NCBI GenBank assembly: GCA_040397175.1 | Contig: JBBAWM010000003.1 | Coordinates: 147,599 to 211,598 of the forward strand | Length of the DNA stretch: 64,000 nt | Origin: Candidatus Limnocylindrus sp. | Lineage (GTDB): Bacteria; Chloroflexota; Limnocylindria; Limnocylindrales; Limnocylindraceae | Reading direction: 5' to 3' | In this document: positions 8,241 through 25,544 of the stretch, one piece after another | How positions within the stretch are numbered: the first letter of the stretch is position 1 | Layout of the letters: the number at the start of each line of letters is the position of its first letter | Position numbers and translations under genes: made by a program | Notes under the pieces: model-generated | Seen by the model: the letters and a program-made list of their open reading frames with translations, nothing else | Databases searched by the model: none | Told to the model about the DNA's origin: nothing

Positions 8241-9748
8241 TGTCCCACCGTACTAATTGCTGACATGAGGAACGTTTGCACGCTCTGTGCAAACAAACTC
8301 GTCAGGATCGTTGGCATGACGCCAAAGACAACGATCATCGCAGCGAGTGGCGCAAGGGTGAGGATCTCGGTTGGTGTGACATCGGTGAGGTGTGAACCGA
8401 GCCCCTTCAAGAACGGCGAGAGTGGGCCAGTGAAGACGCGCTGGTACATATAGAGCAGATAAACAGCGGCAAGGATCATGACGAAGGTAGCGGCGCCAGC
8501 CACCATTGGATTGGCGATGAATGCACCGAGAAGCACCAGGAACTCGCCGGCAAATCCGGAGAGACCAGGTAGGCCAACGGAGGCGAAGAGGAAGAAGCCG
8601 AAGAGTGCCGCGTAGACGGGAGTGCGCACCGCCCAGCCGCCCATCTTCGCGATCTCGCGATCGTGTGTGCGCTCATAACCGATTCCGACGAGCAAGAAGA
8701 GTCCGCTCGTAATCAATCCATGGTTGAGCATCTGCAGGATTGCTCCGTCAACGCCCTGCTGGTTGAAGGTGAAGATGCCGAGTGTGACGAAGCCCATGTG
8801 GCTTACCGAGCTGTAGGCGATGAGCTTCTTTAGGTCGGTCTGCACGATCGCCACGAGCGCGCCGTAGATGATGGCGATCACCGACAGAACGATCATGAGT
8901 GGCGCAAAGAGGTGCGCGCCATCGGGGAAGAGCGGGATCGCGAAGCGAATGAATCCGTAGCCGCCAAGCTTCAGCAGCACGCCGGCGAGGATCACCGAAC
9001 CTGCGGTAGGGGCCTGCACGTGGGCGTCGGGGAGCCAGGTGTGGAACGGGAACATCGGCACCTTAATGGCGAAGGCGAGCGCGAATGCCGCGAATCCGAG
9101 GATCTGCAGCGTTGGGTCGACGATCGTGCCCCGCAGCGCGATCAGGTCGAACGCTCCTGCCCACGAGCCGGTGACGGCCTGGTGGCTGAATGCGGTAGCC
9201 AGGATCGCCACGAGCATGAGGAGTGAACCGACAAGCGTGTAGAGGACGAACTTGATCGTCGCGTAGATGCGGTCGGCGCCGCCCCAGATGCCGATGATCA
9301 GATACATCGGAACGAGAACGATCTCCCAGAAGATATAGAAGAGGAAGAGGTCGAGCGACAAGAAGACGCCGAGCATGCCAGTTTCGAGGATCAGGAAGCT
9401 AATGAAGTACTCCTTCACGCGCGTCTGAATTGGCCCGAAGCTCGCAAGGATGCAGATCCAGCTGAGCAGTGTCGTCAAGACGACGAGCGCGCCAGAGAGC
9501 CCATCCACGCCAAGGTGATACGTGATGCCGAACGACGGAATCCACGAAAGCTGCTCGCTGAAGGCGAACTCGCCACCTTGTGCGCGAATTCCCAGCAGCA
9601 TACCGAGACTCAACACAAAGGTGACAAGCGAAGTAGCCAATGCGGCGAAGCGGACCACGCTCGGTCGCGATGACGGCAGTAGTGCGATGCCGAGCGCACC
9701 GAGGAGGGGCACGAAGATGATCAACGAAAGGATCGGCACGCCACTCAT
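8237..9748 (-). CDS. nuoM: NADH-quinone oxidoreductase subunit M
   Basis: 503-aa antiporter-like subunit, 4-nt overlap with nuoN. Confidence 0.9.
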   Translation of the reverse strand: MSGVPILSLIIFVPLLGALGIALLPSSRPSVVRFAALATSLVTFVLSLGMLLGIRAQGGEFAFSEQLSWIPSFGITYHLGVDGLSGALVVLTTLLSWICILASFGPIQTRVKEYFISFLILETGMLGVFLSLDLFLFYIFWEIVLVPMYLIIGIWGGADRIYATIKFVLYTLVGSLLMLVAILATAFSHQAVTGSWAGAFDLIALRGTIVDPTLQILGFAAFALAFAIKVPMFPFHTWLPDAHVQAPTAGSVILAGVLLKLGGYGFIRFAIPLFPDGAHLFAPLMIVLSVIAIIYGALVAIVQTDLKKLIAYSSVSHMGFVTLGIFTFNQQGVDGAILQMLNHGLITSGLFLLVGIGYERTHDREIAKMGGWAVRTPVYAALFGFFLFASVGLPGLSGFAGEFLVLLGAFIANPMVAGAATFVMILAAVYLLYMYQRVFTGPLSPFLKGLGSHLTDVTPTEILTLAPLAAMIVVFGVMPTILTSLFAQSVQTFLMSAISTVGQ

Positions 9749-11694
9749 CCCGCGAGCACCAGGTACGCGGCGGCAATCGCCACGAGTCCGAAGGCAATGC
9801 CGAGGGCGTAGTTCTGCACGCGACCGGTTTGGATCTGTCGCAGCCCACGGCCACCACTCGAGGTCAGTGTCGCAACACCATTGACCGTGCCGTCAACGAC
9901 GCGACGGTCGAACCACCAGAGCGCATTGGCAAACTTTCGGCCGAAGCGCACGAAGACGAGATCATTTAGGTCATCGAAGTACCAGCGGTTGCGACTGCCG
10001 TCGTAGAGCGGCTGCAAGCGCCTAGTCACACCGCCAAGGAACGCGCCGTTATCGTCGCGGAAGAGACGCACGCCGATCACGGTACCGATTGATGCAACGG
10101 TGACGCTTGCGAGCATCAGGAGTCCATCGATACCGAAGAGCGTCCACGCCTCATGTTCGTGCGCAAGCATGGCAATCGCCGGATGGAAGATCGGCTCAAG
10201 TCCGCCGACCAAGATGCCGTTGGCGAATGGGAAGCCGAGCGCTGCGCCGATTGCGATCGATGGCACGGCCAGAATGATGAGCGGTACCGTCATTGTCCAC
10301 GGCGACTCGTGCACATGCGACTCGTCGTGCACGCGGCTCTTCCCCCAGAAGGTGAGCCCCATCAAGCGGAACATATAGAAGGCGGTCATGCCGGCAACAA
10401 CCATCCCGACGAGCCAGACCCACGTGAAACCAAACTTGAACGCTTCGCCGAGAATTTCGTCTTTTGACCAGAAGCCAGCGAGTGGCGGGAGGCCCGCAAT
10501 CGCAACGGTGCCGACCAACATCGTGGCGTACGTGATCGGAATCTTGCGCCAGAGTCCGCCCATCTTCGTCATCTCTTGTTCTCCATCAACGGCGTGAATC
10601 ACAGAGCCTGAGCCAAGGAAGAGGAGGCCCTTGAAGAATCCGTGCGTGATGAGGTGAAAGATCGCCGGAACCCACGCACCGACACCGAGCGCGGCAAACA
10701 TGTAGCCAAGCTGTGAGAGCGTGGAGAAGGCGAGGACGCGCTTGATGTCAGTCTGCGTGAAGGCAATGGAGGCGGCAAAGATCGCGGTAAAGATGCCGAT
10801 TCCGGCAACGATGAGCATCGCGTCATGGCTCGCGGCGAAGAGTGGGCTCATGCGTGCGACGAGATAGACGCCAGCGTTCACCATCGTTGCCGCGTGGATG
10901 AGGGCGCTCACGGGGGTTGGCCCCTCCATGGCGTCCGGAAGCCACACATGGAGTGGGAACTGAGCAGACTTACCAACGGCACCACAGAATATCAGCAGGG
11001 CGATCACGGTTGCCGCGGGGCCAACGAGTGCTCCCGCCTCGACGCCGGCGAGCACCGTGTGAATGTCAAGTGAGCCGAAGACCACCACGAGGCCCATCAG
11101 GCCGAGGGCGAAGCCAACGTCACCAACGCGGTTCGTAATGAAGGCCTTCTTGGCGGCGAGACCTGGCGCGGTCTTGGTGTACCAGAAGCCGATCAGCAGA
11201 TACGAGGAGAGGCCAACGAGCTCCCAGGCGGCGAAGACGACCAAGAGGTTATCGGCGAGAACGAGTAGCAGCATCGAGAACATGAAGAGGTTCAGGTAGG
11301 CGAAGAAGCGCCAGTAGCTGTCGTCATGGCTCATGTAGCCGACGCTGTAGAGGTGTACCAGGGCGCCGACCGTGGTCACCACCAGCAGGAGAGCGCCGGT
11401 AAGGGCGTCAACGTGTAGGCCGAGCCCGAAGCTGAGGTCGCCCGAGGCGATCCAGGTGAAGAGCGGCATCGAGGCACCCCCCTCGCCGAGGCCCCCGGTG
11501 AGAGCTGGGATCGCCAGGCTCATGGCCAGCGCCCACGTAACGACGATCGCGCCGAGCGGCACCAGGTGGGCCATCTTGCCGAGTCGGCGTCCAAGTGCCG
11601 CCGTAAAGGCGAAGCCGATCAGCGGGAGCAGGAGGAGAAGTGGAGCGTATCCCGGCAGGGCCGCCACCTCCATCACCGGATCAATAGGTGTCAT
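9745..11694 (-). CDS. nuoL: NADH-quinone oxidoreductase subunit L
   Basis: 649 aa, antiporter-like with the long C-terminal extension typical of NuoL. Confidence 0.9.
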   Translation of the reverse strand: MTPIDPVMEVAALPGYAPLLLLLPLIGFAFTAALGRRLGKMAHLVPLGAIVVTWALAMSLAIPALTGGLGEGGASMPLFTWIASGDLSFGLGLHVDALTGALLLVVTTVGALVHLYSVGYMSHDDSYWRFFAYLNLFMFSMLLLVLADNLLVVFAAWELVGLSSYLLIGFWYTKTAPGLAAKKAFITNRVGDVGFALGLMGLVVVFGSLDIHTVLAGVEAGALVGPAATVIALLIFCGAVGKSAQFPLHVWLPDAMEGPTPVSALIHAATMVNAGVYLVARMSPLFAASHDAMLIVAGIGIFTAIFAASIAFTQTDIKRVLAFSTLSQLGYMFAALGVGAWVPAIFHLITHGFFKGLLFLGSGSVIHAVDGEQEMTKMGGLWRKIPITYATMLVGTVAIAGLPPLAGFWSKDEILGEAFKFGFTWVWLVGMVVAGMTAFYMFRLMGLTFWGKSRVHDESHVHESPWTMTVPLIILAVPSIAIGAALGFPFANGILVGGLEPIFHPAIAMLAHEHEAWTLFGIDGLLMLASVTVASIGTVIGVRLFRDDNGAFLGGVTRRLQPLYDGSRNRWYFDDLNDLVFVRFGRKFANALWWFDRRVVDGTVNGVATLTSSGGRGLRQIQTGRVQNYALGIAFGLVAIAAAYLVLAG

Positions 11695-11697
11695 GGG

Positions 11698-12018
11698 TTA
11701 CTGCCTCATCGTGTCGTACTCGTCGACGAGCGGCGTCTTTCGGTTGCGGAAGATGGCGATCACGATCGCCAGGCCAACGGTGGCCTCTGCCGCCGCCACG
11801 GCGATGATCAACAGCGCGAAGGCTGCCCCCTGCCCCGCGAGCGACGGGATAAATGCGCCAAAGGCCAATGCGGCAAGGTTCACGGCGTTCAACATCAGTT
11901 CAATGCTCATCAGCATGCTGATCGCATTTCGTCGCGCGAGGAAGCCGAATGATCCGATGGCAAAGAGCATCCCCGCGAGAACGAGGTACGGCTCGAGGTG
12001 CCCAGCGATTTGGCTCAC
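11698..12018 (-). CDS. nuoK: NADH-quinone oxidoreductase subunit K
   Basis: 106 aa with three TM helices; SIELMLNAVNLA motif. Confidence 0.9.
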   Translation of the reverse strand: MSQIAGHLEPYLVLAGMLFAIGSFGFLARRNAISMLMSIELMLNAVNLAALAFGAFIPSLAGQGAAFALLIIAVAAAEATVGLAIVIAIFRNRKTPLVDEYDTMRQ

Positions 12019-12575
12019 TGCGCCTCCTCGCCTACTTCATCAGCCTTCGGCTCCATCGCGAGGTAGAGGCCCCCGATCACGGCGGCAAGGATGAGCACGC
12101 TCGCGATCTCAAATGCAAGGAGATATGGGCCAAAGAGTGCCGCAGCAACGGGCGCGGTGCCCGTTGCAGCAGGCGTATCCGTGAAAACGGTGGAGCCCCA
12201 GTTCGTGCTACCGAACGCGAGGCCAAAGAGCACGGCGAGCAGCACAGCGGCAAGTGCTGCCGGCGCGACCTGCGTTTGGAAAGCAAGCTTCACCGGCGCC
12301 ACCTTTGTCTGTGTGAGCATGATCGCAAAGAGAATCAGCACGCTAATTGCACCGATGTACACCAGTACCTGCGCGCCAGCAACGATGGCTGCGCCCAACA
12401 TCACGTAGATGCCCGCAAGTGCGCCGAGGGTAAGGATTAGGAAGAGGCCACTCTTAATGATGTCGCGGCCAAAAACGACGGCGAACGCTGCAGCGAGCAC
12501 CACGCCGCTCAGAAGTAGGAAGAGAACATCCGACCACCCGAGCCCAATAAACGGGATGACGTCGGGGAGCGGCAT
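12015..12575 (-). CDS. nuoJ: NADH-quinone oxidoreductase subunit J
   Basis: 186-aa membrane subunit positioned between K and the N-module genes. Confidence 0.85.
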   Translation of the reverse strand: MPLPDVIPFIGLGWSDVLFLLLSGVVLAAAFAVVFGRDIIKSGLFLILTLGALAGIYVMLGAAIVAGAQVLVYIGAISVLILFAIMLTQTKVAPVKLAFQTQVAPAALAAVLLAVLFGLAFGSTNWGSTVFTDTPAATGTAPVAAALFGPYLLAFEIASVLILAAVIGGLYLAMEPKADEVGEEAQ

Positions 12576-12578
12576 CGT

Positions 12579-15125
12579 TTACTTCCGCAGGCTTTGTGGC
12601 AGCACAGGAAGCTGTCGGGCTGGATCGTGACGTCGCCCAGCGACGGTGTTCTCCCAGTTGGCTTCACCACGAATGAATGTTGCCTCTGATGTGCGCTCCA
12701 GCTTTGATAGGGCGATGAGGTCAATCATTGGCTCGCTGCGGTCGGTGTGCGCAAGTTCAAAGTCGAAGCCGCTGCGGAGCGCGTCATATGGACAGGCGTC
12801 AACGCAGATGCCGCAAAGGATGCAGCGAGACTCATCAACTTCGTATTTGGTAAGAATTCGTGGCTTCGGCATCAGCGCGCCAGTTGGGCAGGTTTCTGCA
12901 CAGCGGCCACACGAAACACACGGTGATTCATTGAGGCTCATGTCGAGCGGCGTGGTGACGAGCGTGTCGAAGCCGGTACGCATGAAGTCGTAGCAGGCGG
13001 CGCCAACAACCTCGGCACACACATTGGCGCAACGGCCACAGTCAATGCAGCGTGATGGCTCGCGCAAGATGAACGCGTGTGAGTCGTCGCGCAGGTAGTC
13101 GTGGTTTGCTCCAGTCCAACGGTTTTCGGTAATGGAGCGGAATCCGGCGCCACCGTGATGGTCCTTCTCGAGCGTCTTAAGCGTGGTGCCGTATTCGATG
13201 CCGAGGCGGCGTAGATCGCAGAAGCCGATCGCTTCGCAGGTGCACTGCAAGCAGCGCGTGCTCTCGGCCATCACCTCGGGCTTGCTGTACGGAATCTCGT
13301 ATTGGATGTAATCGTTCTTGCGCTCTTCGGCTGGGAGTGCCTTCAGGCGCAGGCGTGGCTCCTTCACCTCAGCGGTGAACGGAACGATGCTCAAGAACTC
13401 TGGCTGAGGCTCGGCGAGTGTCTGTCGGTTGCGAATCTCCGAGAGGTCGAGCCCCTGCAGGTACGCATCGACGGCGTATGCGCAGCGTCGACCGTCGGCA
13501 ATCGAAGCGACGACGGTTGTTGCGCCGTTACGCAGGTCGCCGCAGCCGAAGACACCGTCGCGGCCAGATTGGAAGGTGACAGCGTCCGCCTTCATGCGGC
13601 CGTTCTTGGTGGTGGCGACGCCCTCTGCGCCAACGCTCGCCCAGGTCATATCGGGACCCTGGCCGATCGCCTTCAGGATGCGGTCGCACTCGATGATGAA
13701 TTCAGTGCCAGGAGCTGGCTCCGGTCGTCGGCGGCCTGATGCGTCGGGGGCGCCGAGCTGCATGCGAATGAACTCAAGGCCGATCACCTTGTTGTTCCCA
13801 TCGGTGACGACGCGGGTCGGCCCAGCCTGGAAGATGGCGCGTGCCCCCTCCTCGATCATCTCGTGCACTTCGTCGGCTGCTGGCATGTCCTTCATGTCGC
13901 GGCGGTAGACGAGGGTGACCTCCTTGGCCCCCTGGCGCACGCTCGTTCGTGAGCAGTCCATCGAGGTGTAGCCGCCACCGACCACGACGACGCGACTCCC
14001 CTCGTGGCCTGGGTAGGTGAGGCCGAGGGCAGCGGTGTGCAGGTAGTCGAGACCGTCGATGACACCGTCGGCGTCTTCGCCAGGAATGCCAAGGTCGTTC
14101 GTGTCGTAGCAGCCGATAGCAACGACGACGCCGTCGTAGCCCTGTGCCTTCAGGTCGGCAACGGTGAAGTCGCGACCGAGCATCTTGCCGCACTCAAAGC
14201 GGCCACCAAGTCGCGTGATCGACTGGTACTCACCGTCGAGCACTTCGATCTTTGGCAGTCGGTACTGCGGAATGCCGTAGCGCAACATGCCGCCTGGCTC
14301 TGGGTCTTTTTCGAAGACGGTAACGTCGTGGCCGGCAACAAGCAGGTAGTACGCCGCGGATGCGCCCGCCGGGCCTGAGCCGATGACGGCGACGCGCTTG
14401 CCCGTCTTTGGCTGCAGCTCGAATGGCACTGGTGGGTCGAGATCCTCGTCCCACATTGCCTTCAACACCTGGTCGCCGGCGTAGCGATGGCTATCACGAA
14501 TCGCGATGGCCTCGTCGACCTCGTCTCGACGGCAGTGATCCTCGCAGGGCGCTGGGCAGACGCGGCCAAGGATGCTTGGGAATGGAATGGTGCGCTTGAA
14601 GATGCGTGCCGACTCGCGGAACTGCGATTCTGCGTTCGCCTTCAGGAATCCAGGAATGTCGATGTGGCTCGGGCACTTGTTCTGGCACGGTGGCAAGCAG
14701 TAGGCGTTGTGGTCGCTGAAGATCAGCTCAAGGTTGGTGCGGCGAATCTCGCGGATGCGATCGGTCTGCGTTGCTACGACCTGCGCAGGCTCCGCCTTTG
14801 CGGAACAACTGATGGATGGTTGATCGCACCCTTCAACATCCACCACGCACATGCGGCAGGCGCCGAATCCTGGAAGCTTCGGGTCGTAGCAGAGCGTTGG
14901 CACCTCGATACCGTTTGCGCGGCAGACTTCCAAAATGGTCTGCCCTTCGAATGCTTCAAACTTCTGCCCGTCGATCTCGACGTAGAAGGTTGGTGTGCGC
15001 TGCGGTCGCTGTGGGCTGCGTGTGGTGAGCAGCTTGTCGACGGCGACCTCTGCCGACGGCGCAGGGGTGATCGCGCGCGATACAGGTGTTACTGCGCTTA
15101 CCGGTCGATCAATCAGGTCGGCCAT
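12579..15125 (-). CDS. Multidomain Fe-S flavoprotein: NuoG-like N-terminal [2Fe-2S]/[4Fe-4S] domain + GltD-like FAD/NAD(P) oxidoreductase + C-terminal 2x[4Fe-4S] (NuoI-like) domain
   Basis: N-terminus matches the NuoG/Fdh/hydrogenase 2Fe-2S ferredoxin domain (CYDPKLPGFGACRMCVV; H-x3-C-x3-C-x3-C). Middle has two Rossmann motifs of glutamate-synthase-small-subunit-like enzymes (VAVIGSGPAGASAAYYL; VVVVGGGYTSMDCSRTS). C-terminus has two CxxCxxCxxxCP motifs, and the last ~45 aa resemble the NuoI C-terminal half (RCILCGICVDACPYDAL...FDFELA). Confidence 0.7.
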   Translation of the reverse strand: MADLIDRPVSAVTPVSRAITPAPSAEVAVDKLLTTRSPQRPQRTPTFYVEIDGQKFEAFEGQTILEVCRANGIEVPTLCYDPKLPGFGACRMCVVDVEGCDQPSISCSAKAEPAQVVATQTDRIREIRRTNLELIFSDHNAYCLPPCQNKCPSHIDIPGFLKANAESQFRESARIFKRTIPFPSILGRVCPAPCEDHCRRDEVDEAIAIRDSHRYAGDQVLKAMWDEDLDPPVPFELQPKTGKRVAVIGSGPAGASAAYYLLVAGHDVTVFEKDPEPGGMLRYGIPQYRLPKIEVLDGEYQSITRLGGRFECGKMLGRDFTVADLKAQGYDGVVVAIGCYDTNDLGIPGEDADGVIDGLDYLHTAALGLTYPGHEGSRVVVVGGGYTSMDCSRTSVRQGAKEVTLVYRRDMKDMPAADEVHEMIEEGARAIFQAGPTRVVTDGNNKVIGLEFIRMQLGAPDASGRRRPEPAPGTEFIIECDRILKAIGQGPDMTWASVGAEGVATTKNGRMKADAVTFQSGRDGVFGCGDLRNGATTVVASIADGRRCAYAVDAYLQGLDLSEIRNRQTLAEPQPEFLSIVPFTAEVKEPRLRLKALPAEERKNDYIQYEIPYSKPEVMAESTRCLQCTCEAIGFCDLRRLGIEYGTTLKTLEKDHHGGAGFRSITENRWTGANHDYLRDDSHAFILREPSRCIDCGRCANVCAEVVGAACYDFMRTGFDTLVTTPLDMSLNESPCVSCGRCAETCPTGALMPKPRILTKYEVDESRCILCGICVDACPYDALRSGFDFELAHTDRSEPMIDLIALSKLERTSEATFIRGEANWENTVAGRRHDPARQLPVLPQSLRK

Positions 15126-15127
15126 GA

Positions 15128-16387
15128 TCAGCTCCGTCCGCTTGTTGGTGTTGCCGCCGATGCGGCAATGGCAGGTCCAAACTCAGAGGCAAAGTATCGC
15201 ACCCCCGTCAGGAGCGGGCTTGGCGCCAGCGCTTCATGTGCACAGAGGGCGCTATCGGTCACATCGGCGGCGAGCTTCTGCAGCCGCTCGGCATCGGCAG
15301 GGCCGGCCAGCCCATCAACAAAGCGCTGGCCGATCTCAGCGAGTCGGCGCGTGCCGATTCGGCACGGAATCGTCTTGCCGCACGCCTCGTCAGCGCACCA
15401 GCGCGTCAGCATGGTGGCAAGCTCTGGAATGGCGACGGAGTTGTCGAGCGCCAGGAGTGCGCCTGAGCCTATATGTGCGCCGACACCCTTGAGCCCTGCG
15501 CCGCTGTACGGCGTGCCGCCAAAGAGGTTCGCTGGAATGAATCCGCCCGTTGGCCCACCAACGAGCAGCGCCTTGATACGTGCGCCACTGGCAGTGCCGC
15601 CCGCCGCCGCGAGGATCTCGTTGAGTGGCGTGCCAGTCGGCACCTCAAGGACGCCAGGGTTTGCGACAGAGCCGCTGATCTGCACGAGCACCGTTCCCGG
15701 CTGTGCCGTGTCACCGATCTGCGCAAAGGTCGCAGCGCCGTTGCTGAGGATCCATGGCACCGCGGCGAGGGTGGCAACGTTGTTCACGGCAGTTGGCTTG
15801 CCGAGGTAGCCGATCTCAGATGGATATGGCGGTGTCTGCTCTGGCTGGCCGCGCTTGCCGGCCAGCGCCTTCATGAGCACCGTCTCTTCGCCGATCATGC
15901 TGGAGCCCTGGAGCGGGCGGACAGTGATGATCAGCTCGCGACCGGTGCCGAGCAGCGATGCGCCGAGGATCCCCTCGCGTTCGGCGTTGGTGATCACCGC
16001 TTCGAGTCGCTTGATCGCTTCGGTGTACTCGGCGCGCACGGCGATGAACGCTTCGCGGGCGCCAACGGTGAGGGCGGCGATGGCGAGCCCTTCCACGATC
16101 CCTTGTGGGTTCTCCTCCATGAGGAGTCGGTTGGTGAAGACGGCGGGGTCAGATTCGTAGCCGTTCGCCACGGCGTAGTGCTGGCTTGCTGGTTCGGCGG
16201 CGGTCGCCTGCCACTTCGCTCCGGTCAGGAAGCCGCCGCCGCCGCGACCACGCAGGCCGGCGGCGATCAGGGTTGCGGTCGTGCTGGCGGCTCCTGCCGC
16301 AGCGGCGGCGCGGAGTGCCGCCCACGGCTCGGTCGGTGCCGCGAACAGGAGTTGGCTCCAGCCCTTCGGGGCGTTCAGGCGCCTCAT
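15128..16387 (-). CDS. nuoF: NADH-quinone oxidoreductase subunit F (51-kDa, FMN/NADH-binding)
   Basis: GLRGRGGGGFLTGAKW (FMN site), VNNVATLAAVPWI, and a C-terminal 4Fe-4S N3 cysteine motif. Confidence 0.85.
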   Translation of the reverse strand: MRRLNAPKGWSQLLFAAPTEPWAALRAAAAAGAASTTATLIAAGLRGRGGGGFLTGAKWQATAAEPASQHYAVANGYESDPAVFTNRLLMEENPQGIVEGLAIAALTVGAREAFIAVRAEYTEAIKRLEAVITNAEREGILGASLLGTGRELIITVRPLQGSSMIGEETVLMKALAGKRGQPEQTPPYPSEIGYLGKPTAVNNVATLAAVPWILSNGAATFAQIGDTAQPGTVLVQISGSVANPGVLEVPTGTPLNEILAAAGGTASGARIKALLVGGPTGGFIPANLFGGTPYSGAGLKGVGAHIGSGALLALDNSVAIPELATMLTRWCADEACGKTIPCRIGTRRLAEIGQRFVDGLAGPADAERLQKLAADVTDSALCAHEALAPSPLLTGVRYFASEFGPAIAASAATPTSGRS

Positions 16388-17205
16388 GCGGCGTACCTAC
16401 CAGCGAGGGCGGCGGCCCAGCTGGCGGCATTCTTGGCGCTGAGGTCGCGCTGTGGCTCACCATCAATGACCACGAGTGGTGACGGCGCATCGGGCAGGTG
16501 GTTCGGGAGCGACTCAAGGCGCAGGTTGCTCCATGGGATCGCCCGGCCGAACTCGGTGCCGAACTCATAGCTGAGGGTGCCCATCACCGAGCCTGCTCCT
16601 GAGACGAGGCAGTTGGCGCAACGGCAGACCGAGATGGAGCGGGTTACCCCGGGCTCGAAGGCAAGGTGCTTATAGAAGGTGGCGGTGCCGTACACCATGG
16701 CGTACCAGGCGCCGGTCGCTCGGCTGACGCGCTTCAACGCATCAACGGGAAGGTAGCCGTACGCCGCCTGAATCGCCTCCAGGATGGCGAGCATGTGATG
16801 CGGGTCGTAGTCGTGCGCTTCAAGAATCTCGTCGACCCTTGCAATGTTGATGGTCGCCCCAGTTGCCGCCGCCGCGTCGGAGACGGTTCGACCGGAGCGG
16901 CGCATCGCCGACTCTTCACGACGTTCGGCGTACTGCTCGGCGGGGCCCCAATGCACGGCAAAGCGACCCTTCGTGTCGGTGCCGCCCATGTCAATGCACT
17001 CAATCGGGCAAGCCTGCGCGCACTGGAAGCAGGTCTCGCACTTCAGCGTGCCGTGTTCGTCGGTAACGAGTTCGAGTCGGCCGCGGTTTCGCGGTGCGAT
17101 GTCGGGCTTCACCTCTGGGTAGAGCACCGTCCGCTTCGGTTGGAAGAAGCGCGTCAGCGTGAGACGCATCCCTGAAACGAGCCCAGCGCCAGGAATTCGC
17201 GGCAT
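16384..17205 (-). CDS. Fusion protein: NuoI-like N-terminal half (one [4Fe-4S] motif) + NuoE-like (24-kDa thioredoxin-like) domain
   Basis: N-terminal RTVLYPEVKP...RNRGRLEL...CETCFQCAQACPIE matches NuoI up to the first cluster, with no second CxxCxxCxxxCP. The C-terminal half matches NuoE (LAILEAIQAAYGYLP...YGTATFYKHL...CRCANC), but the second Cys pair of the 2Fe-2S site appears to be missing. Start set at ATG 17205 (GGGAGG 7 nt upstream, abutting the nuoH stop); the listed ORF extends to 17277. Confidence 0.65.
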   Translation of the reverse strand: MPRIPGAGLVSGMRLTLTRFFQPKRTVLYPEVKPDIAPRNRGRLELVTDEHGTLKCETCFQCAQACPIECIDMGGTDTKGRFAVHWGPAEQYAERREESAMRRSGRTVSDAAAATGATINIARVDEILEAHDYDPHHMLAILEAIQAAYGYLPVDALKRVSRATGAWYAMVYGTATFYKHLAFEPGVTRSISVCRCANCLVSGAGSVMGTLSYEFGTEFGRAIPWSNLRLESLPNHLPDAPSPLVVIDGEPQRDLSAKNAASWAAALAGRYAA

Positions 17206-17207
17206 AA

Positions 17208-18548
17208 CTACCTCCCCGCAATCAGCACGGCGAACGCCGTGGCAAAGATATTGAGCAGTGATGCGGGCAGCAGCCACTTCCAGGCGAAGCCCATCAGCTG
17301 ATCAATGCGTGCGCGCGGGAGCGTGCCGCGCATCCAGACGAAGGTGAAGACAAGCGTGAACGTCTTGATCAGGAACCAGATCAGGCTTGCTACGGGTGGC
17401 AGCATCACGTACGCCCACAGGCCGATGGCCGCCGTTGATACCGCGCCGAAGATCAAGAACCCACCGATCAGTGCCTGCCATCCTTTCACGCGCGTACTCG
17501 CGAACCAGAGGGGCGCGGCGAAGAGCAACGTGCCAAGTACCGGCGCGATGCCAGCGAGCAGCGGCAGCCCAATGCCGAGCGCACTGAGATTGATCAGGAT
17601 CTGCGGATGGAGGTCAATATGGATTGGCGGGTTGGATCCGCCAAGGAATACGGCGCTGAAGAGTGCCGAGACGATGAAGACGTTCACGTACTCCGCGAAG
17701 AAGAAGAAGCCGAAGCGCATGCCGGAATACTCGGTTGCAAATCCGGCGACGATCTCTTGGTCGGCCTCGGCATTGTCAAATGGTGTGCGGTTCGCCTCGG
17801 CGGTGATGGCGATGAAGAAGATGATCGCCGCGAGGGGCTGGCGGAAGATGAACCAGTCGAGGAACGAGCCGTCTTGCGCGGCAACGATCTTCGGCAGTGA
17901 GAGCGTGCCGGTGAGGATCACGATCCCCACAACCGAAAGTGTGAGTGGAATCTCGTAGCTGATCGCCTGCGCTGCAGCGCGAATGCCGCCGAGCAGCGAG
18001 TACTTATTGAACGACGACCACCCGGCCATCATGAGGCCAACGACGCTGAGTCCACCGATGGCAAAGAAGTAGAGAAGCCCAAGCTCAAAGCCCATGCTCG
18101 TAAGCTCTGGCGCAAACGGGATCACGAGGAGCGTCATGAAGCTTGCGAGATAGACAACGACTGGCGCGAGCGTGAAGACTGGAACATCGACGCTCGGTGG
18201 CGTGTAGTCCTCTTTCATCAACACTTTAAGGCCGTGCACCACGCTCATCACGGCACCGGCTGGGCCGATGCGGTCGGGCCCAATGCGCAGGTTCATGAGC
18301 GCAATGATCTTCATCTCCATGTAGATCAGCAGGAATGCGACTGGAACAGAGATCAAGAATGTGATGACGGATGCTGCAAGGAAGCGCACGATCGGCAAGT
18401 TTGCGCCGATGGTTGCGGCGATGGCACCACCAAATGTGGCCAGCAGTACGGTCGTCAGCGCGCCGCCAATGGCGAGCACGGGTAGCAGCACGGCGAGTAC
18501 CCGGCCCGCTGGTGTGAGGCGGTTCCAGGCCATCGATGCGCCGCTCAC
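17208..18548 (-). CDS. nuoH: NADH-quinone oxidoreductase subunit H
   Basis: 446-aa polytopic protein with the NuoH/ND1 pattern. Confidence 0.9.
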   Translation of the reverse strand: MSGASMAWNRLTPAGRVLAVLLPVLAIGGALTTVLLATFGGAIAATIGANLPIVRFLAASVITFLISVPVAFLLIYMEMKIIALMNLRIGPDRIGPAGAVMSVVHGLKVLMKEDYTPPSVDVPVFTLAPVVVYLASFMTLLVIPFAPELTSMGFELGLLYFFAIGGLSVVGLMMAGWSSFNKYSLLGGIRAAAQAISYEIPLTLSVVGIVILTGTLSLPKIVAAQDGSFLDWFIFRQPLAAIIFFIAITAEANRTPFDNAEADQEIVAGFATEYSGMRFGFFFFAEYVNVFIVSALFSAVFLGGSNPPIHIDLHPQILINLSALGIGLPLLAGIAPVLGTLLFAAPLWFASTRVKGWQALIGGFLIFGAVSTAAIGLWAYVMLPPVASLIWFLIKTFTLVFTFVWMRGTLPRARIDQLMGFAWKWLLPASLLNIFATAFAVLIAGR

Positions 18549-19756
18549 TTGTCAACTCCGCCCATGACTGGGTCGAGGCTGGCCATCACCGCCATTGTGT
18601 CGGCGATGAGGTTCCCCCTGGTGAGCGGCCCAACAAGTTGTAGGTGCACGAATGACGGGTCGTGGATGCGCATGCGGAACGGCTGGTCGGTGCCATCGCT
18701 AATTGCGTAGGTGCCGTACACGCCACGTGGCCCTTCAGCGGCACCGAATGCGCGGCCAGGTCGCGGGCGCAACAGTCGTGGCAGCTTCGCCATCACTGGT
18801 CCGTCGGGCATCTCGTGAAGCACCTGGTCGATGATGCGGATCGACTGCTTGATCTCGTCCATGCGAACGAGGTAGCGCGCCAGCGAGTCGCCCTCGTCGC
18901 GGGTTGGCACGTCGAACTCCAGCTCTGGGTAGACGAGATAGGGGCGGTCGCGGCGCAGGTCGAACGGCACGCCGCTCGCTCGTAGGTTCGGACCGGTCAC
19001 GCCCATCTTGAGCGCTGTCTTTGCATCGAGAACGCCGAGGCCACGGGTGCGGCGCACGAAGATCTCGTTCTCGTTGATCAGGGCCAGGTTGGAGTCGATC
19101 TGCGCCGCGGCGCGGCTCATCCACGTGCCGAGGCGGCTCATGAACTCGTGGTTCAGGTCGCCGTTCACCCCGCCGATTCGGTAGTAGTTGTAGAGCAGCT
19201 TCTGTCCGGTGAGGGCGGCGAGCATGTCGACGATCTCGTCGCGCTCGATGAAGGCCCAGAGGATCGGCGTGATGCCGCCGAGGTCGAGCGCCATCCAGCC
19301 CTGGAAGAGGGTGTGGCTGGCGATGCGGTTGAGCTCCATCGTGAGCACGCGGATGTACTGCGCACGGAGCGGCACCTCAACATCCATCAACTTTTCGAAA
19401 GCGGCGACCGGTGCAGCCTCACAGAAGAGTGACGCCACGTACTCAAGCGGATCGGTGTAGCAGATCGCCTGGTGGTAGTCGGCGTTCTCGCAGAGCTTCT
19501 CAACGCCGCGATGCAGGTAGCCGAGCACCGGGTCAAGGTCGACCACTTTTTCACCGTTCACCTTGATAATCACGCGCAGCACGCCGTGGGTTGAAGGGTG
19601 CTGTGGACCCATGTTCACGAACATCTCGCCTTCGCGCAACGTGAGGAACTCCGCCTGTCGCTCTGTCTGTGGGATCGGCGCCGGTTCGTACCACGTGGAC
19701 TCCGCGGGAATCGCTACGCGTGGATCATCGAGCGATGGGCGCATCTGCTGCGTCAT
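18545..19756 (-). CDS. nuoD: NADH-quinone oxidoreductase subunit D (49-kDa)
   Basis: 403 aa; conserved NuoD core (...HRGVEKLCE...) and position after nuoC. Confidence 0.9.
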   Translation of the reverse strand: MTQQMRPSLDDPRVAIPAESTWYEPAPIPQTERQAEFLTLREGEMFVNMGPQHPSTHGVLRVIIKVNGEKVVDLDPVLGYLHRGVEKLCENADYHQAICYTDPLEYVASLFCEAAPVAAFEKLMDVEVPLRAQYIRVLTMELNRIASHTLFQGWMALDLGGITPILWAFIERDEIVDMLAALTGQKLLYNYYRIGGVNGDLNHEFMSRLGTWMSRAAAQIDSNLALINENEIFVRRTRGLGVLDAKTALKMGVTGPNLRASGVPFDLRRDRPYLVYPELEFDVPTRDEGDSLARYLVRMDEIKQSIRIIDQVLHEMPDGPVMAKLPRLLRPRPGRAFGAAEGPRGVYGTYAISDGTDQPFRMRIHDPSFVHLQLVGPLTRGNLIADTMAVMASLDPVMGGVDK

Positions 19757-19758
19757 CG

Positions 19759-20310
19759 CTACGCCCCTGGGCTCTTGCGCAGCAGGGTTGCTGCGGTTGC
19801 GTCGGCCGGTGTTCCGGCGCGCTCCATGTTTCGCACACCAGCGGCGGGTGAGCGCGATGCATCGTCGGCGAGATAGAAATCTTTGCGCAGCGGGAAGCTG
19901 CGGTAATCGTCTGGCATGTAGATGCGACGCAGGTCGCGATTCCCCTCAAAGATGATCCCAAACATGTCGTAGGCCTCGCGCTCCATCCACTCGGCGCCTG
20001 GCCACAAGAATGTTGCCGACGCAATGCGCGGCGCGGTGCGATCGAGTCCTGGAACAATGACGCGAAGCCAATCACCACTCGTTGACGAAGAGAGGTGGTA
20101 CACAACTTGCATCTCTTCGCCGGTGTCGACACCGCACAGGTCAATCAGCATTTCAAATCGAAACGCAGGGTCATCGTGCAACAATCGCAACGTATCGGTG
20201 GCATCGGCAAGCGCAACGCGAATCTCACTCTCGTCATATCGCTGGCGCACCGGTGTGAGGAGTCGCTCGCCAAACTTCTCTTGCAGCAGTGCGGCGAGAC
20301 GGCGATCCAC
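19759..20310 (-). CDS. nuoC: NADH-quinone oxidoreductase subunit C (30-kDa)
   Basis: 183 aa, NuoC-like; placed between nuoB and nuoD. Confidence 0.9.
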   Translation of the reverse strand: MDRRLAALLQEKFGERLLTPVRQRYDESEIRVALADATDTLRLLHDDPAFRFEMLIDLCGVDTGEEMQVVYHLSSSTSGDWLRVIVPGLDRTAPRIASATFLWPGAEWMEREAYDMFGIIFEGNRDLRRIYMPDDYRSFPLRKDFYLADDASRSPAAGVRNMERAGTPADATAATLLRKSPGA

Positions 20311-21039
20311 TTAGATCCCCTTCGGAACTGTTGGCCCGATCGCGCGCTCTGGCCAGTGGCCGCGGCGATCTTTTACCAACTGCTGCAACTTCATCATTCC
20401 GTAGATCAGACCCTCTGGGCGCGGCGGGCAGCCAGGAATATATACATCGACCGGCATCACGCGATCGATTCCTTGGACCACGGAGTAGCTGCGCTTGTAG
20501 CGTCCGCCAGAGCAGGTGCAGTCGCCCATCGCAACGACCCATTTTGGTTCAGGCATCTGCTCCCACAAGCGAATCAGTGGTTCGGCCATTTTTGTTGTCA
20601 GTGTTCCGGCAACGATCAACACGTCGGCCTGACGGGGGCTGGCGCGGAACGGGAACATGCCCCAGCGGTCGATGTCGTTCTTCGGTGTTGCGGTCGACAT
20701 CATCTCAATTGCGCAGCAGGCGAGACCAGAGAGCAGTGGCCACAAGCTGTTTGCGCGAATCAGATCGAGTACGACGTCGGCCTTCGTTGGAATCGCTGCG
20801 AGGGCACCGCCCCAGCGCGCATCATCGACACGACCGTCACCGGTTGCGTCGTAGCGCGCGAGCTCAAGATTTGGATGCGCCTCGAGTGGTAGCCCGCCGT
20901 ACGCGCGTGGATCATCGGTGCTCCACAGTGTGTTGCCAACGGTTGCCGGCGACTGAATGCTGCCGTCTGGCTGCACTTCAGGCAGGTTGCTGAACTTTGG
21001 GTCGCGCGTTATCGCCATGAGAGGACCCCCTTGCGCCAT
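20311..21039 (-). CDS. nuoB: NADH-quinone oxidoreductase subunit B (20-kDa, N2 cluster)
   Basis: CCAIEMM...GDCTCSGG...PGCPP cysteine motifs of the N2 cluster. Has an N-terminal extension overlapping nuoA, so the true start may be internal. Confidence 0.9.
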
Positions 21040-21365
21040 GCATGCGCGAGGCCAACAAGGAGCACGCCGATGAAGATCGCCATGGAGATCAGGCCGTCCA
21101 TCAAGAGCACCTTGAAGTTCAGTGCCCAGATGTAGATGAAGACGATCTCAACGTCGAAGGCGACGAAAAGGAGTGCGTACAGATAGAAGGAGAGACCGAA
21201 GCGCCCGTGCGTGTCGCCGTACGTGTCGATGCCAGACTCGTAGGGGACCTGCTTGCCGCGGCTGCCGCGCGTGCGGTGGGAGATCAGCCAAGCGAGGCCG
21301 ATGGTAAGGAACACGAAGGAAGCACCTGCGCCTGCGAAACCGAGGACGTACCAGAGTCCGGTCAT
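21009..21365 (-). CDS. nuoA: NADH-quinone oxidoreductase subunit A
   Basis: 118 aa with three TM helices; NuoA/ND3 family; first gene of the nuo cluster. Confidence 0.9.
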
Positions 21366-21437: not shown

Positions 21438-22619
21438 CTAGACGAGGGGGCGATTCGGAGCCGCCGTTCCTGGGAGTGGCGATGTGGGGTCGGCGAGGGC
21501 ATTTGCCCCTGGGGAACGCCCCGCCACAAACAGTTCCACGGCAAATCCGCCCATGCGGCGAGGATCCATCAGTTGGGCGAGTGCGGAGCGTAGGGCGATC
21601 GCCGCCTCAAGGGTTGCCGTCGGCCCGGTGCGGGTTCGGGCTACCTCGCCGTCGACCCCCGCCGTTGCGAGAAACCTGGCCTGGTTCGTGCTGGACACGT
21701 GGCGGAGCCCACCTCGTTCCGCCGCAGCCCGAAGCAGGGTGAGGTCCACATGGGCGGTCAGGTCGCGGCCCCCCGGCTCGCCGAGGAGGTCGGCGGTTGC
21801 TCGGTGCCCCTGGTAGGCGAGGGCGGTACCGGCCATTCGGCTGGCGGGGTCCCGCAGGGTAGCCCCCTCACGGCCGTAATCAAGCACGAGGACGACCCCC
21901 TCGGTGAGCTCGCCCCCGAGCGTGGCGGCCCAGTCGGCCGTGGCTGGCGAGATCTCGGCGAGCTGCCCTTCGGCGAGCGGCGGCCAGCCAGCCATCAGGG
22001 AGGCGAGCCGCTCGGCGACCTCTGGGTCAGGGGCCACTTCAATCCACGTGAGGGCATTTGTTACAGGATCAACGGCCACGCGACGCTCGGCGAAGCCGCC
22101 CGGGGCGGCGGCGCGGCCGACCACGATGTGAAAAGGGAGGGCGTCGGCAAACTCATTGGCGACCACGATCCCTGCGGCGGGTGGGCTGCTCGCTGCGATG
22201 AGCGGCGGCCCCCCACCGGGTCGGGCCCCCAGTGCCGCCGTCAGGTCGGCCAGGCGGTATGGATTCGCCTCGCTCACCGAGACCTCCAGCACATCCAGTA
22301 GGGGGTGCCCTTCGCGGGCGAGGTGGTCGAGTGCTGCCAGCAGCAGGGTCCCCTCGCCAGCGCCGTACTCACGCCAGCGAAACTGCGTCGGCCGACCGAG
22401 CCGATCCCATGTTGCGGCGGCGAGTTGGGCGATGGCGACGCCAAGGAGTGGGTGCAGCTCTGGCGCGGTCATGAAGTCGCCGCTGCGGCCAGCCCGACGC
22501 TGCACCGTTGCGTAGTAGCCGAGCTCGGGCTCAAGGAGGGCGCGCTCCATGAAGCGCGCAAAGCTGATGGAGCCCTGCCGTTGGGCCTCTTCACGAATGA
22601 GCCGTTCGACCTCTTCCAT
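21438..22619 (-). CDS. MidA/NDUFAF7-family (DUF185, COG1565) SAM-dependent methyltransferase
   Basis: Family motifs present: ISFARFMERALLEPELGYY, GDFMTAPELHP, EYGAGEGTL, VANEFADALPFH. Start set at internal ATG 22619 (MEEVERL...), because the longer ORF would overlap the divergent folK start. Lies 72 bp upstream of nuoA. Confidence 0.8.
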   Translation of the reverse strand: MEEVERLIREEAQRQGSISFARFMERALLEPELGYYATVQRRAGRSGDFMTAPELHPLLGVAIAQLAAATWDRLGRPTQFRWREYGAGEGTLLLAALDHLAREGHPLLDVLEVSVSEANPYRLADLTAALGARPGGGPPLIAASSPPAAGIVVANEFADALPFHIVVGRAAAPGGFAERRVAVDPVTNALTWIEVAPDPEVAERLASLMAGWPPLAEGQLAEISPATADWAATLGGELTEGVVLVLDYGREGATLRDPASRMAGTALAYQGHRATADLLGEPGGRDLTAHVDLTLLRAAAERGGLRHVSSTNQARFLATAGVDGEVARTRTGPTATLEAAIALRSALAQLMDPRRMGGFAVELFVAGRSPGANALADPTSPLPGTAAPNRPLV

Positions 22620-22653
22620 GCAGTAGATCCTACGCGGCGCTACCGTCGGGCAC

Positions 22654-23244
22654 ATGCGTGACCTCGTTGTACACCTAGGGATCGGGGCAAACCTTGACGA
22701 CCCTGTGGCCACACTCGCCGAGGCGGTCGTTGCGCTCGCGCACATTCCGGGCTGGAGCCTTGAGCAGGTCTCACCGCTCTATCGCACCACCCCAGTCGGA
22801 CTTGTTGATCAACCGGAGTTCTTCAATGCCGCGATTCGTCTGCGCGTTGCACTACCCGACGAGCCAGCTGCGGCGGCGGTTGAGGTGCTCGTGCGCGTGA
22901 AAGAACTCGAACGCCTCTTCGGGCGAGTGCCAACAGTACGGTTCGGACCGCGCCGTCTCGACATTGACATCATCGCTATGGAGAACATCGCGGTCGTGCA
23001 TCCGCGCCCACTCGGCACAGAGCCAGATGGCGCCGATAGCGATCGGCCCCTCGTTGTTCCACATTCTGCGGCAACCGAACGCCTCTTTGTCTTAGCGCCA
23101 CTCGCCGACATTTCACCAACGCTCAAGGCACCAGGCTGGTCGGGAACAGCGCGTGAACTGCGTGATGTACAACGAGGTCGTGAGGGCGATGCGGCGGCGC
23201 TCTGCGTTGGCGCGTGGGACCAGGCGGCGCTGCGCTGGGTGTAG
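22654..23244 (+). CDS. folK: 2-amino-4-hydroxy-6-hydroxymethyldihydropteridine pyrophosphokinase (HPPK)
   Basis: GPRRLDIDII...HPRPL...ERLFVLAPLADI motifs characteristic of FolK. Confidence 0.85.
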   Translation: MRDLVVHLGIGANLDDPVATLAEAVVALAHIPGWSLEQVSPLYRTTPVGLVDQPEFFNAAIRLRVALPDEPAAAAVEVLVRVKELERLFGRVPTVRFGPRRLDIDIIAMENIAVVHPRPLGTEPDGADSDRPLVVPHSAATERLFVLAPLADISPTLKAPGWSGTARELRDVQRGREGDAAALCVGAWDQAALRWV

Positions 23245-25136: not shown

Positions 25137-25544
25137 GTGCGCAGCTGCGCACGGCACGAGTGCATGAACATCCGCAGGTTTGGCCCCGGCCATCGTCGTG
25201 CAGACCGCGCTGCGGGCTCACAAGGCGTTCTCAGTAGCGCGATCTTCTCGAACGACGTTGCGCAAATTACGGAATTCACCGTCACGCCCGGTGGCACGTA
25301 CGGCCCACTTCGTAGTGCTGGTGATGTGGTTCTCGTCGTGATTGAGGGGGGCGGCTGGATCACCGCGCGTGAAACGCAGGTGCATCTTGCCGCCGGTGAG
25401 TCGCTGCACCTTGAACGACTAACGCCCTATAGCGTGGCGGCTCGTGAGTTGCCGCTACGCGCGATCCTCATCGAACTTACTTCGCACGACCTTGCCGAGC
25501 CGGCTCGCACCATAGGCGCCAGCGGCGGCGGCGAGCAGGAGTAG
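25137..25544 (+). CDS. Hypothetical cupin-like small protein
   Basis: 135-aa ORF 9 nt downstream of the preceding ORF. The central segment (GGTYGPLRSAGDVVLVVIEGGGWITARETQVHLAAGESLHL) resembles a cupin beta-barrel. Its 3' end overlaps the convergent giant GT-C gene by 90 nt, so start and reality are uncertain. Confidence 0.35.
   Translation: MRSCARHECMNIRRFGPGHRRADRAAGSQGVLSSAIFSNDVAQITEFTVTPGGTYGPLRSAGDVVLVVIEGGGWITARETQVHLAAGESLHLERLTPYSVAARELPLRAILIELTSHDLAEPARTIGASGGGEQE

Follow-up and report, generated by a model that had tools for sequence, protein, structure and literature searches.

The nuo operon on the minus strand of a 64,000-nucleotide stretch from the genome of Candidatus Limnocylindrus sp., a freshwater bacterium of the Chloroflexota (GenBank assembly GCA_040397175.1, contig JBBAWM010000003.1, positions 147,599 to 211,598; this whole stretch is called the window below) appears to encode a complex I in which the NuoI subunit is divided over two polypeptides, each fused to a component of a pyridine nucleotide dehydrogenase module. 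Our favored interpretation, to which we attach a probability of about 0.6, is that the operon specifies one membrane-bound, proton-pumping complex I whose split NuoI would tether a module that oxidizes both NADH and NADPH; the physical assembly of this complex, its cluster occupancy, substrates, electron route, and coupling are what we infer from the genes. Open reading frame (ORF) listing together with Pfam and NCBIfam scans gave the gene order nuoA-B-C-D-H-[NuoI N-half::NuoE]-F-[NuoG-like::GltD-like::ferredoxin::NuoI C-half]-J-K-L-M-N, in agreement with an earlier reading of the same DNA made from the letters alone (the sequence-only reading), which had placed genes of the NuoE, NuoF, and NuoG types between nuoH and nuoJ. 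The three genes concerned are referred to as IE (the NuoI N-terminal half fused to NuoE), F (a NuoF-like protein of 419 amino acids [aa]), and G (the 848-aa NuoG-like fusion); the positions of these and other features are collected in Table 1.

The case for a divided NuoI is built on complementary matches to a single family. NuoI models match IE over its N-terminal part only (aa 33 to 107 of the 297-aa ORF, approximately model positions 1 to 85; for NCBIfam NuoI NF004536, E = 2.2e-15 over model positions 14 to 85 of 180), and this protein contains one CxxCxxCxxxCP motif only. In the TIGR01971 model, IE covers positions 1 to 64 and G aa 756 to 802 covers positions 71 to 117 of 121, jointly 111 of the 121 positions, with scores of 42.9 bits for the N-half and 50 bits for the C-half, both under the family cut-off of 113 bits. 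When IE aa 1 to 106 and G aa 745 to 848 were joined and searched against PDB sequences, query positions 9 to 74 aligned with positions 23 to 88 and query positions 119 to 166 with positions 97 to 144 of plant TYKY (7ar7_I, 169 aa; conditional E of ~1e-12 for each), two stretches that are contiguous but for an 8-residue loop, and the same two-stretch pattern was repeated with Thermus Nqo9, E. coli NuoI, and mammalian NDUFS8. To judge by these alignments, neither piece alone is a NuoI, and the halves are complementary and nonoverlapping; the proposal in the sequence-only reading that NuoI is divided over two polypeptides is thus upheld. Across the six reading frames of the window, only four CxxCxxCxxxC motifs were found, one in IE and three in G, with no hidden, frameshifted second motif. 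In the 2x[4Fe-4S] ferredoxin fold, one motif supplies three cysteines of a cluster and the other motif supplies the remaining one; association of the NuoI halves would therefore be needed to build clusters N6a and N6b.

Domain annotation of the two fusion ORFs, suggested in the sequence-only reading as a check, returned a NuoI half plus NuoE for the one and a NuoG N terminus plus GltD, ferredoxin, and NuoI-half domains for the other. The attachment of NuoE behind a half-NuoI with a single [4Fe-4S] motif was borne out by the Pfam and NCBIfam matches and by conservation; the best PDB matches of the NuoE part are HydC, NfnC, and 9bov_C, and AlphaFold2 (AF2) modeled this domain with predicted local distance difference test (pLDDT) values above 90. 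The ATG at 17205 is likely to be the true start of IE, since a GGAGG site precedes it and homologues begin there. G is, as had been proposed, a combination of a NuoG-like N terminus and a GltD-like flavin adenine dinucleotide (FAD)/NAD(P) domain, as indicated by Pfam, by the NCBIfam model PRK12814, and by retained nucleotide-binding motifs. The cysteines of its [2Fe-2S] domain (C79, C90, C93, and C107) are invariant, and the molybdopterin-like domain of NuoG is absent from the protein by Pfam. The GxGxxG and GGG...YRR motifs that G keeps are common to the NADPH-dependent StnC, NfnB, and GltD, and because of them, together with what is known of the family, we predict that G uses NADPH. An invariant His213 occupies the site of StnC Lys170, an unusual ligand of the FAD-proximal cluster (PMC10482914).

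The C-terminal region of G had been read as a 2x[4Fe-4S] domain equivalent to the second half of NuoI, and this assignment requires amendment: a NuoI-like part is present, but there are three motifs, only the third of which is that of NuoI, and the first two make up a complete ferredoxin domain shared with StnC, to which the third adds a half-site. Motifs 1 and 2 align with both ferredoxin-domain motifs of StnC, and motif 3 falls in the formate-dehydrogenase-like continuation of that protein. On this alignment, G has one half-ferredoxin site that is unpaired, as does IE. The 21 residues that separate motif 2 from the NuoI motif give a polyferredoxin-like spacing, with FwdF as the top PDB match for the stretch, and the tail behind the NuoI C-half recurs in homologues from four distant loci (L004, L005, L087, and L088). 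Searching with the last 174 aa of G recovered nothing but short G fragments from broken gene calls, which helped in assessing conservation but did not trace the origin of the tail.

The remainder of the cassette points to a source other than canonical NuoEFG. F contains Complex1_51K, SLBB, and NADH_4Fe-4S domains only (Pfam), also matches TIGR01959 (NCBIfam), and is of the minimal-size NuoF type, the N-terminal and C-terminal Fe-S domains of the Bfu type being absent. Its PDB matches to NfnB (9n5u_B, E = 9.6e-88, 298 bits), StnB (296 bits), and HydB all rank above any complex I NuoF, for which the score reaches at most 242 bits; the alignment to NfnB and StnB is confined to their core. Across aa 49 to 780, the best matches of G among solved structures are to 9bov_A (E = 1.2e-164), to StnC (8oh5_C, E = 2.6e-141) from the Stn transhydrogenase of Sporomusa ovata, and to NfnA (9n5u_A, E = 2.1e-138) from an archaeal NfnABC. 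Since F, E, and G find their best matches in NfnB/HydB/StnB, HydC/NfnC, and StnC/NfnA, respectively, we group the cassette with the Bfu-type, NADPH-linked Stn/Nfn-Bfu enzymes, and on these matches its nearest relatives are the Stn/Nfn-Bfu NADPH transhydrogenases rather than canonical NuoEFG. The sequence-only reading of a relocated and remodeled NADH-oxidizing module consequently stands with regard to its position between nuoH and nuoJ but not with regard to its identity, since the cassette is not a displaced NuoEFG.

The likeness to StnABC (8oh5), NfnABC (9n5u), and 9bov extends to the three-gene E-F-G order and the domain logic: StnC, like G, has a GltD insertion within a framework resembling NuoG. 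These enzymes are soluble, ferredoxin dependent, and bifurcating, whereas F of the window lacks the domains for clusters B2 to B5 and E lacks two of the C1 ligands; StnC continues into an FdhF-like C-terminal domain, whereas G has the NuoI C-half in its place and E carries the N-half. Compared with the Bfu family as a whole, G is a BfuA of the Nfn/Stn type (a NuoG-like N terminus with a GltD-like FAD/NADPH insert), whereas F is without the extra Fe-S domains of BfuB and without the Asp by the flavin mononucleotide (FMN), and the four-Cys C1 site of BfuC is missing from IE; judged by the core that defines the family, the system falls outside the Bfu enzymes. In NfnABC, ferredoxin is reduced via C1 and the B3 and B4 clusters of the NfnB C-terminal domain, and Asp-195 of Tsi NfnB has been proposed to stabilize the FMN semiquinone (PMC12018979). 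Bifurcation is not expected in Limnocylindria because the ferredoxin branch has been lost, and the module seems to have given up this activity and retuned several of its clusters. PRK12814 (a "putative NADPH-dependent glutamate synthase small subunit" of ~657 aa) describes the same succession of [2Fe-2S], GltD, and ferredoxin domains as G, of which aa 49 to 705 match model positions 6 to 630 of 657 (E = 1.6e-162; 542 bits, against a cut-off of 916); G differs in the addition of ~95 C-terminal residues that constitute the second half of NuoI.

The Q and P modules (NuoA, B, C, D, H, J, K, L, M, and N) are ordinary. All seven subunits of the membrane arm (NuoA, H, J, K, L, M, and N) are encoded together and were recognized by Pfam; the N2 motifs are intact in the NuoB translation, including PGCPPRPE, and NuoD retains the quinone-site motifs GPQHPSTHG and DPLEY in alignment with 49-kDa subunits, the His and Tyr of which we take to have the roles of T. 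thermophilus Nqo4 H38 and Y87. NuoB has an N-terminal extension of ~80 aa before the conserved domain, and the protein is of comparable length in two Limnocylindria loci (247 to 251 aa in L001 and L002). NuoH, at ~446 aa, exceeds the usual length by ~90 to 100 aa, and by hydropathy scan the insertion adds hydrophobic segments at approximately aa 316 to 350 and 357 to 379, preceding the last conserved helix; the long form is kept in Limnocylindria (446 to 447 aa in L001 and L002), and the L004, L005, and L088 proteins are shorter (321 to 372 aa). No transmembrane segments were detected in IE, F, or G by the same type of scan, which fits a location in the peripheral arm, and at the H/IE, IE/F, F/G, and G/J junctions the stop codon of one gene overlaps the start codon of the next or is separated from it by 2 to 3 nucleotides.

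We suggest that IE would dock as NuoI does, through a conserved N-terminal segment (the membrane-arm docking helix), and that G would supply the second NuoI motif, so that N6a and N6b would form where IE and G meet; the pairing of the halves would thereby fasten the flavoprotein module of E, F, and G to the Q module (NuoB/D). Electrons from NADH would pass through the FMN of F and an N3-type cluster into the Fe-S chain of G, those from NADPH would enter the same chain through the FAD and the two [4Fe-4S] clusters of the GltD domain, and both would proceed by way of the G ferredoxin domain and the reconstituted N6a/N6b to N2 in NuoB and then to a quinone, probably menaquinone, with quinone reduction driving proton translocation. 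The origin of the module probably lies in the insertion of a Stn/Nfn-Bfu-type transhydrogenase cassette inside nuoI. An FAD-to-Fe-S-to-FMN wire has been shown experimentally in Stn, where the supported path runs from FAD through C7, C6, C5, C4, C3, and B1 to FMN, and we count this in favor of our scheme; the Stn clusters past the ferredoxin domain have been described as a nonfunctional remnant (PMC10482914). That branch, a dead end in Stn, would in the window complex be the exit to quinone.

The fusions are not peculiar to one assembly. The IE fusion is found at 56 to 62% identity over its full length in more than 100 cluster representatives, including entries named Limnocylindrales, and a distribution scan in which each GTDB species was represented by a single genome confirmed relatives in at least 512 species genomes; the best 80 of these are all Chloroflexota metagenome-assembled genomes (MAGs), and the closest among the matches listed, at 97% identity, are Candidatus Limnocylindrus. 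The same fusions were present in 80 of 80 genome loci examined (55 to 97% identity), and every sufficiently long Limnocylindria locus showed the order A-B-C-D-H-IE-F-G-J-K-L-M, so that the comparison with related genomes advocated in the sequence-only reading found the arrangement in each Limnocylindria locus inspected. The motif cysteines of IE and G, including the eight of the NuoI half-sites, are invariant (85/85 IE and 56/56 G orthologues). In some MAGs, only long-read (nanopore-derived) ones, the G gene is broken into fragments in a manner resembling assembly frameshifts, and this is the one observation that speaks for an assembly or frameshift artefact or for pseudogenes; the probability of such an explanation is negligible, since intact fusions with invariant cysteines occur in dozens of independent assemblies of differing technologies and no extra motif exists in any frame. 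The sequencing errors that were named at the outset as a potential source of the fusions are accordingly excluded by conservation across hundreds of genomes. Database entries for these proteins bear the names HndA, formate dehydrogenase subunit gamma, ferredoxin, hypothetical protein, and 4Fe-4S binding protein; the genes are mislabeled, and the arrangement goes unrecognized in annotation.

Exhaustive and profile searches also recovered distant IE-type fusions (~30% identity), and the loci that carry them (Table 1) supply the strongest comparative argument: the N-half and C-half co-occur in five divergent lineages, even where GltD moves from G to F, and for this reason we consider that the halves function together. 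In L004, for example, it is a 265-aa HoxU-like protein that ends in the NuoI C-half ("SCIYCGLCVESCPHDALETGSDYELA"). L087, from a Ktedonobacterales MAG, has a NuoE reduced to its helical part, the thioredoxin-like domain having been lost; "ferredoxin" families of 228 and 246 aa are abundant in metagenomes. The Thermoleophilia locus L088 is a candidate for the ancestral form, possibly coupled to ferredoxin; genes for aldehyde:ferredoxin oxidoreductase and POR lie nearby.

L088 also bears on a further alternative, an electron-confurcating Nuo-Bfu complex that would deliver electrons from reduced ferredoxin and NAD(P)H to quinone. The complete BfuB-type F (643 aa) and canonical NuoE cysteines of the Thermoleophilia homologue, together with the Nuo-Bfu complexes predicted by Schut et al. 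(PMC9304861), make such an activity plausible for the Thermoleophilia form; for the Limnocylindria clade it is very improbable, given that F of the window and of all Limnocylindria orthologues is without those domains and that both the ligands of the C1-type cluster and the Asp next to FMN have been substituted.

Several observations weigh against our interpretation. Two concern the unity of the complex: no membrane nuo genes lie within 10 kb of the L087 cluster, and the absence of any other nuoI is a result for the 64-kb window. The L087 arrangement would suit a pair of distinct enzymes, namely a soluble oxidoreductase of the Stn type whose genes have settled in the nuo operon and an 11-subunit complex I with its NuoI encoded elsewhere or dispensed with, and Bfu-type modules are indeed usually soluble. 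We nevertheless give this explanation a very small chance, because the operon has no NuoI sequence beyond the two module-fused halves, the fusions conserve both the N-terminal docking segment specific to NuoI and the FDFELA tail, the halves stay together through the domain shuffling described above, and the genes are translationally coupled; the related concern that the 848-aa protein might be a standalone enzyme with no complex I association does not hold, since the only second NuoI half in the window sits on it. Structure prediction lent no assistance: a single-sequence AF2 model of a chimera of the NuoI N-half (aa 1 to 106) and G aa 745 to 848 had an uninformative pLDDT of 32, and for a chimera of 570 aa aligned with 37 homologues of IE and 8 of G fragments the NuoI N-half reached 33 to 69 and the G part 30 to 45, confidence so low for the Fe-S parts (30 to 50 overall) that the models constitute no test of NuoI reconstitution.

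The other contrary observations concern the NADH branch. The flavin loop of F reads NGYESDP in place of the usual NADEGDPG, with a conserved Tyr77 aligned with Asp-195 of Tsi NfnB, and its N3 motif, EACGKTIPC, has a conserved Thr at the second Cys position; these altered residues might impair the NADH/FMN site. In the NuoE domain of IE, the canonical downstream CxxxC pair is gone, leaving C194-x-C196-xx-C199. The sequence-only reading had recognized C-x4-C as all that remained of this [2Fe-2S] site, and C194 and C199 are kept as stated, but C196 and a His236 located one residue past the first missing Cys position are also conserved in the Limnocylindria clade and may together provide a 3Cys/1His cluster site. 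These substitutions at catalytic positions, the two missing cysteines, and the outright loss of the NuoE thioredoxin domain in some Chloroflexota relatives (P0283 and P0290) would suit an enzyme of the same architecture in which NADPH, entering via the GltD-type FAD, is the sole real donor and the NuoF- and NuoE-like proteins are dead assembly scaffolds. We regard this as unlikely: the glycine-rich FMN loop, GEET, KPT.VNNV, and the three N3 cysteines of F are strictly conserved, a conserved His384 two residues past the last N3 Cys could compensate for the Thr, and such purifying selection argues for a working flavin site, while in Ktedonobacterales a canonical N3 motif stands alongside the same Asp-to-Tyr change. 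Less likely again is that the complex serves as a membrane-anchored transhydrogenase between NADH and NADPH over the FMN-FeS-FAD wire or that it runs in reverse, using proton motive force and quinol to make NADPH. Its closest characterized relatives, Stn and NfnABC, are NADH/NADPH transhydrogenases with wired nucleotide sites, but the ferredoxin-coupling branch that gives such an enzyme its energetic use is absent (F, at 419 aa, has no B3/B4 domain), the proton-pumping membrane arm is conserved in full, as is an intact quinone site, and the sequence carries no sign of direction.

The complex that we favor, a proton-pumping complex I with both NADH and NADPH input, probably works as canonical complex I does downstream of NuoI and upstream of it would resemble the nonbifurcating part of Stn/Nfn-Bfu. 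With canonical complex I (Nuo/Nqo; T. thermophilus 2fug/4hea) it has in common the Q and P subunits, the N2 and quinone-site motifs, and proteins like NuoE, NuoF, and the NuoG N terminus; it differs in that NuoI is in two pieces rather than one polypeptide, the order D-E-F-G-H-I-J is replaced by D-H-[I'E]-F-[G'I'']-J, a GltD-type FAD/NADPH domain is found instead of the molybdopterin-like domain of NuoG, and the ligands of clusters N1a and N3 have changed. Schut et al. described the Bfu family in 2022 and predicted Nuo-Bfu complexes in Geobacter, Deferribacteres, Planctomycetes, and Nitrospirae (PMC9304861). Both systems embody one idea, that a Bfu-type module encoded inside a nuo cluster can serve as the N-module, but in Nuo-Bfu as described the module replaces NuoEFG and has a BfuB with bifurcation clusters, and neither a split NuoI nor GltD is mentioned (PMC9304861), whereas the Limnocylindria module sits within nuoI and its F would escape the BfuB search criteria of those authors (PMC9304861). 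FpoF of the F420H2 dehydrogenase and NdhS/V/O of cyanobacterial NDH-1 likewise represent different input devices on a conserved 11-subunit core; in those systems, however, the NuoI homologue (FpoI or NdhI) is intact and the input module is not fused to its halves. In the searchable literature, in which subscription journals are thinly covered, we came across no account of a NuoI in two pieces and none of a nuo operon whose N-module carries a GltD domain.

A more inclusive proposal, which we advance tentatively and would place somewhat short of even odds, is that all of the following hold jointly: the module represents a second, independent attachment of a pyridine nucleotide dehydrogenase to the 11-subunit core, through a Stn/Nfn-Bfu-type operon inside nuoI; the two-polypeptide connector acts as a covalent anchor; NADH and NADPH have separate sites; the system is widespread in abundant soil and freshwater Chloroflexota and also occurs in Actinomycetota (Thermoleophilia); and His ligation occurs at the N1a-equivalent, N3-equivalent, and FAD-proximal clusters. 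To our knowledge, NuoI and its homologues (TYKY/NDUFS8, NdhI, FpoI, and hydrogenase-type relatives) have been described as single polypeptides, and a naturally split NuoI fused to the input module would, if confirmed, illustrate the extent to which the complex I electron wire can be reengineered; it would also represent a separate route of N-module recruitment, with a bearing on how the 11-subunit ancestor gained NADH oxidation. Likewise, we know of an NADPH-oxidizing complex I only through mutagenesis of E. coli NuoF, and the present system, if our interpretation is correct, would be a natural energy-converting complex I that oxidizes NADPH. Limnocylindria are abundant in lakes and soils, and models of their NAD(P)H economy and respiration would in that case need revision.

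Table 1. Positions of features in the window and composition of distant loci with a split NuoI (window coordinates unless a locus is named)
Feature	Position	Strand	Remarks
NDUFAF7/MidA-type methyltransferase (PF02636)	21438..22745	-	Pfam E=9.1e-35; directly upstream of nuoA
nuoA	21009..21365	-	Pfam Oxidored_q4, E=1.6e-30
nuoB (cluster N2 subunit)	20311..21039	-	Pfam Oxidored_q6, aa 108-218 of 242; start codon uncertain
nuoC	19759..20310	-	Pfam Complex1_30kDa, E=1.1e-37
nuoD (quinone-site subunit)	18545..19756	-	Pfam Complex1_49kDa; PDB match Nqo4 (2fug_4), E=8.6e-90
nuoH	17208..18548	-	Pfam NADHdh, E=8e-100, aa 61-438; profile length 298 positions
IE	16384..17205 (ATG, 273 aa) or 16384..17277 (GTG, 297 aa)	-	
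IE, NuoI N-terminal half	16888..17205	-	IE aa 1-106; amphipathic N terminus and first CxxCxxCxxxCP motif (C56, C59, C62, C66)
IE, NuoE-like thioredoxin-type domain	16384..16854	-	Pfam PF01257 (2Fe-2S_thioredx), E=7.4e-18, aa 149-284 of the 297-aa ORF
F, NuoF-like, 419 aa	15128..16387	-	
G, 848 aa	12579..15125	-	
G, [2Fe-2S] NuoG/HydA-type N-terminal domain	14763..14981	-	aa 49-121; Pfam Fer2_4, E=7.7e-17
G, GltD/NfnB-like FAD and NAD(P)H domain	13455..14699	-	aa 143-557; two [4Fe-4S] sites; Fer4_20 and Pyr_redox_2
G, HydA/NuoG-type 2x[4Fe-4S] ferredoxin domain	12873..13070	-	aa 686-751; Fer4_Nqo3; motifs C693-C703 and C736-C746
G, NuoI C-terminal half	12579..12860	-	aa 756-848; CxxCxxCxxxCP (C768-C778), FDFELA, conserved tail
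nuoJ	12015..12575	-	Pfam Oxidored_q3
nuoK	11698..12018	-	Pfam Oxidored_q2
nuoL	9745..11694	-	Pfam Proton_antipo_N, _M, and _C
nuoM	8237..9748	-	Pfam Proton_antipo_M
nuoN	6801..8240	-	Pfam Proton_antipo_M
L004, unclassified contig			nuoH - I'E - 1048-aa [2Fe-2S]-NuoF-GltD fusion - 265-aa HoxU-like protein - nuoJKLMN
L004, [2Fe-2S]-NuoF protein with GltD at its C terminus	L004:2076-6023		alternative domain arrangement
L005, unclassified contig			nuoD - nuoH - I'E - F - StnC-like G-type gene with NuoI C-half motif, ended by contig edge
L087, Ktedonobacterales MAG	L087:9467-14454		nuoB - I'E' - F - G with NuoI C-half
L088, Thermoleophilia MAG GCA_052139595.1			full operon; canonical NuoE cysteines; G ending in NuoI C-half
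L088, F	L088:10758-12689		643 aa; N-terminal [2Fe-2S] and C-terminal 2x[4Fe-4S] domains, complete BfuB type

The PF02636 methyltransferase gene is found upstream of nuoA in L001, L002, and L003 also, and its product is a possible assembly factor of the system, a membership that we hold to be tentative. To this family belongs NDUFAF7/MidA, a factor for complex I assembly in mitochondria that methylates an Arg in the 49-kDa subunit, and the window NuoD carries GYLHRGVEK, the motif that holds the Arg target in mitochondria.

Elsewhere in the window, a tmRNA gene occupies positions 41617 to 41992 of the minus strand (Rfam RF00023, 119 bits, full length). Downstream of nuoN, on the minus strand between positions 195 and 5809, lie genes for a myo-inositol-1-phosphate synthase, two lipid A-type acyltransferase homologues, a PHP-domain protein, and a GT4 glycosyltransferase, a set that resembles a phosphatidylinositol-mannoside-type glycolipid cluster. 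Two large minus-strand ORFs complete these observations: a 1394-aa protein (25455 to 29639) with weak protein O-mannosyltransferase (PMT) matches only, in its C-terminal part, and an 828-aa ORF (30933 to 33419) with no Pfam match at E<=1e-5.

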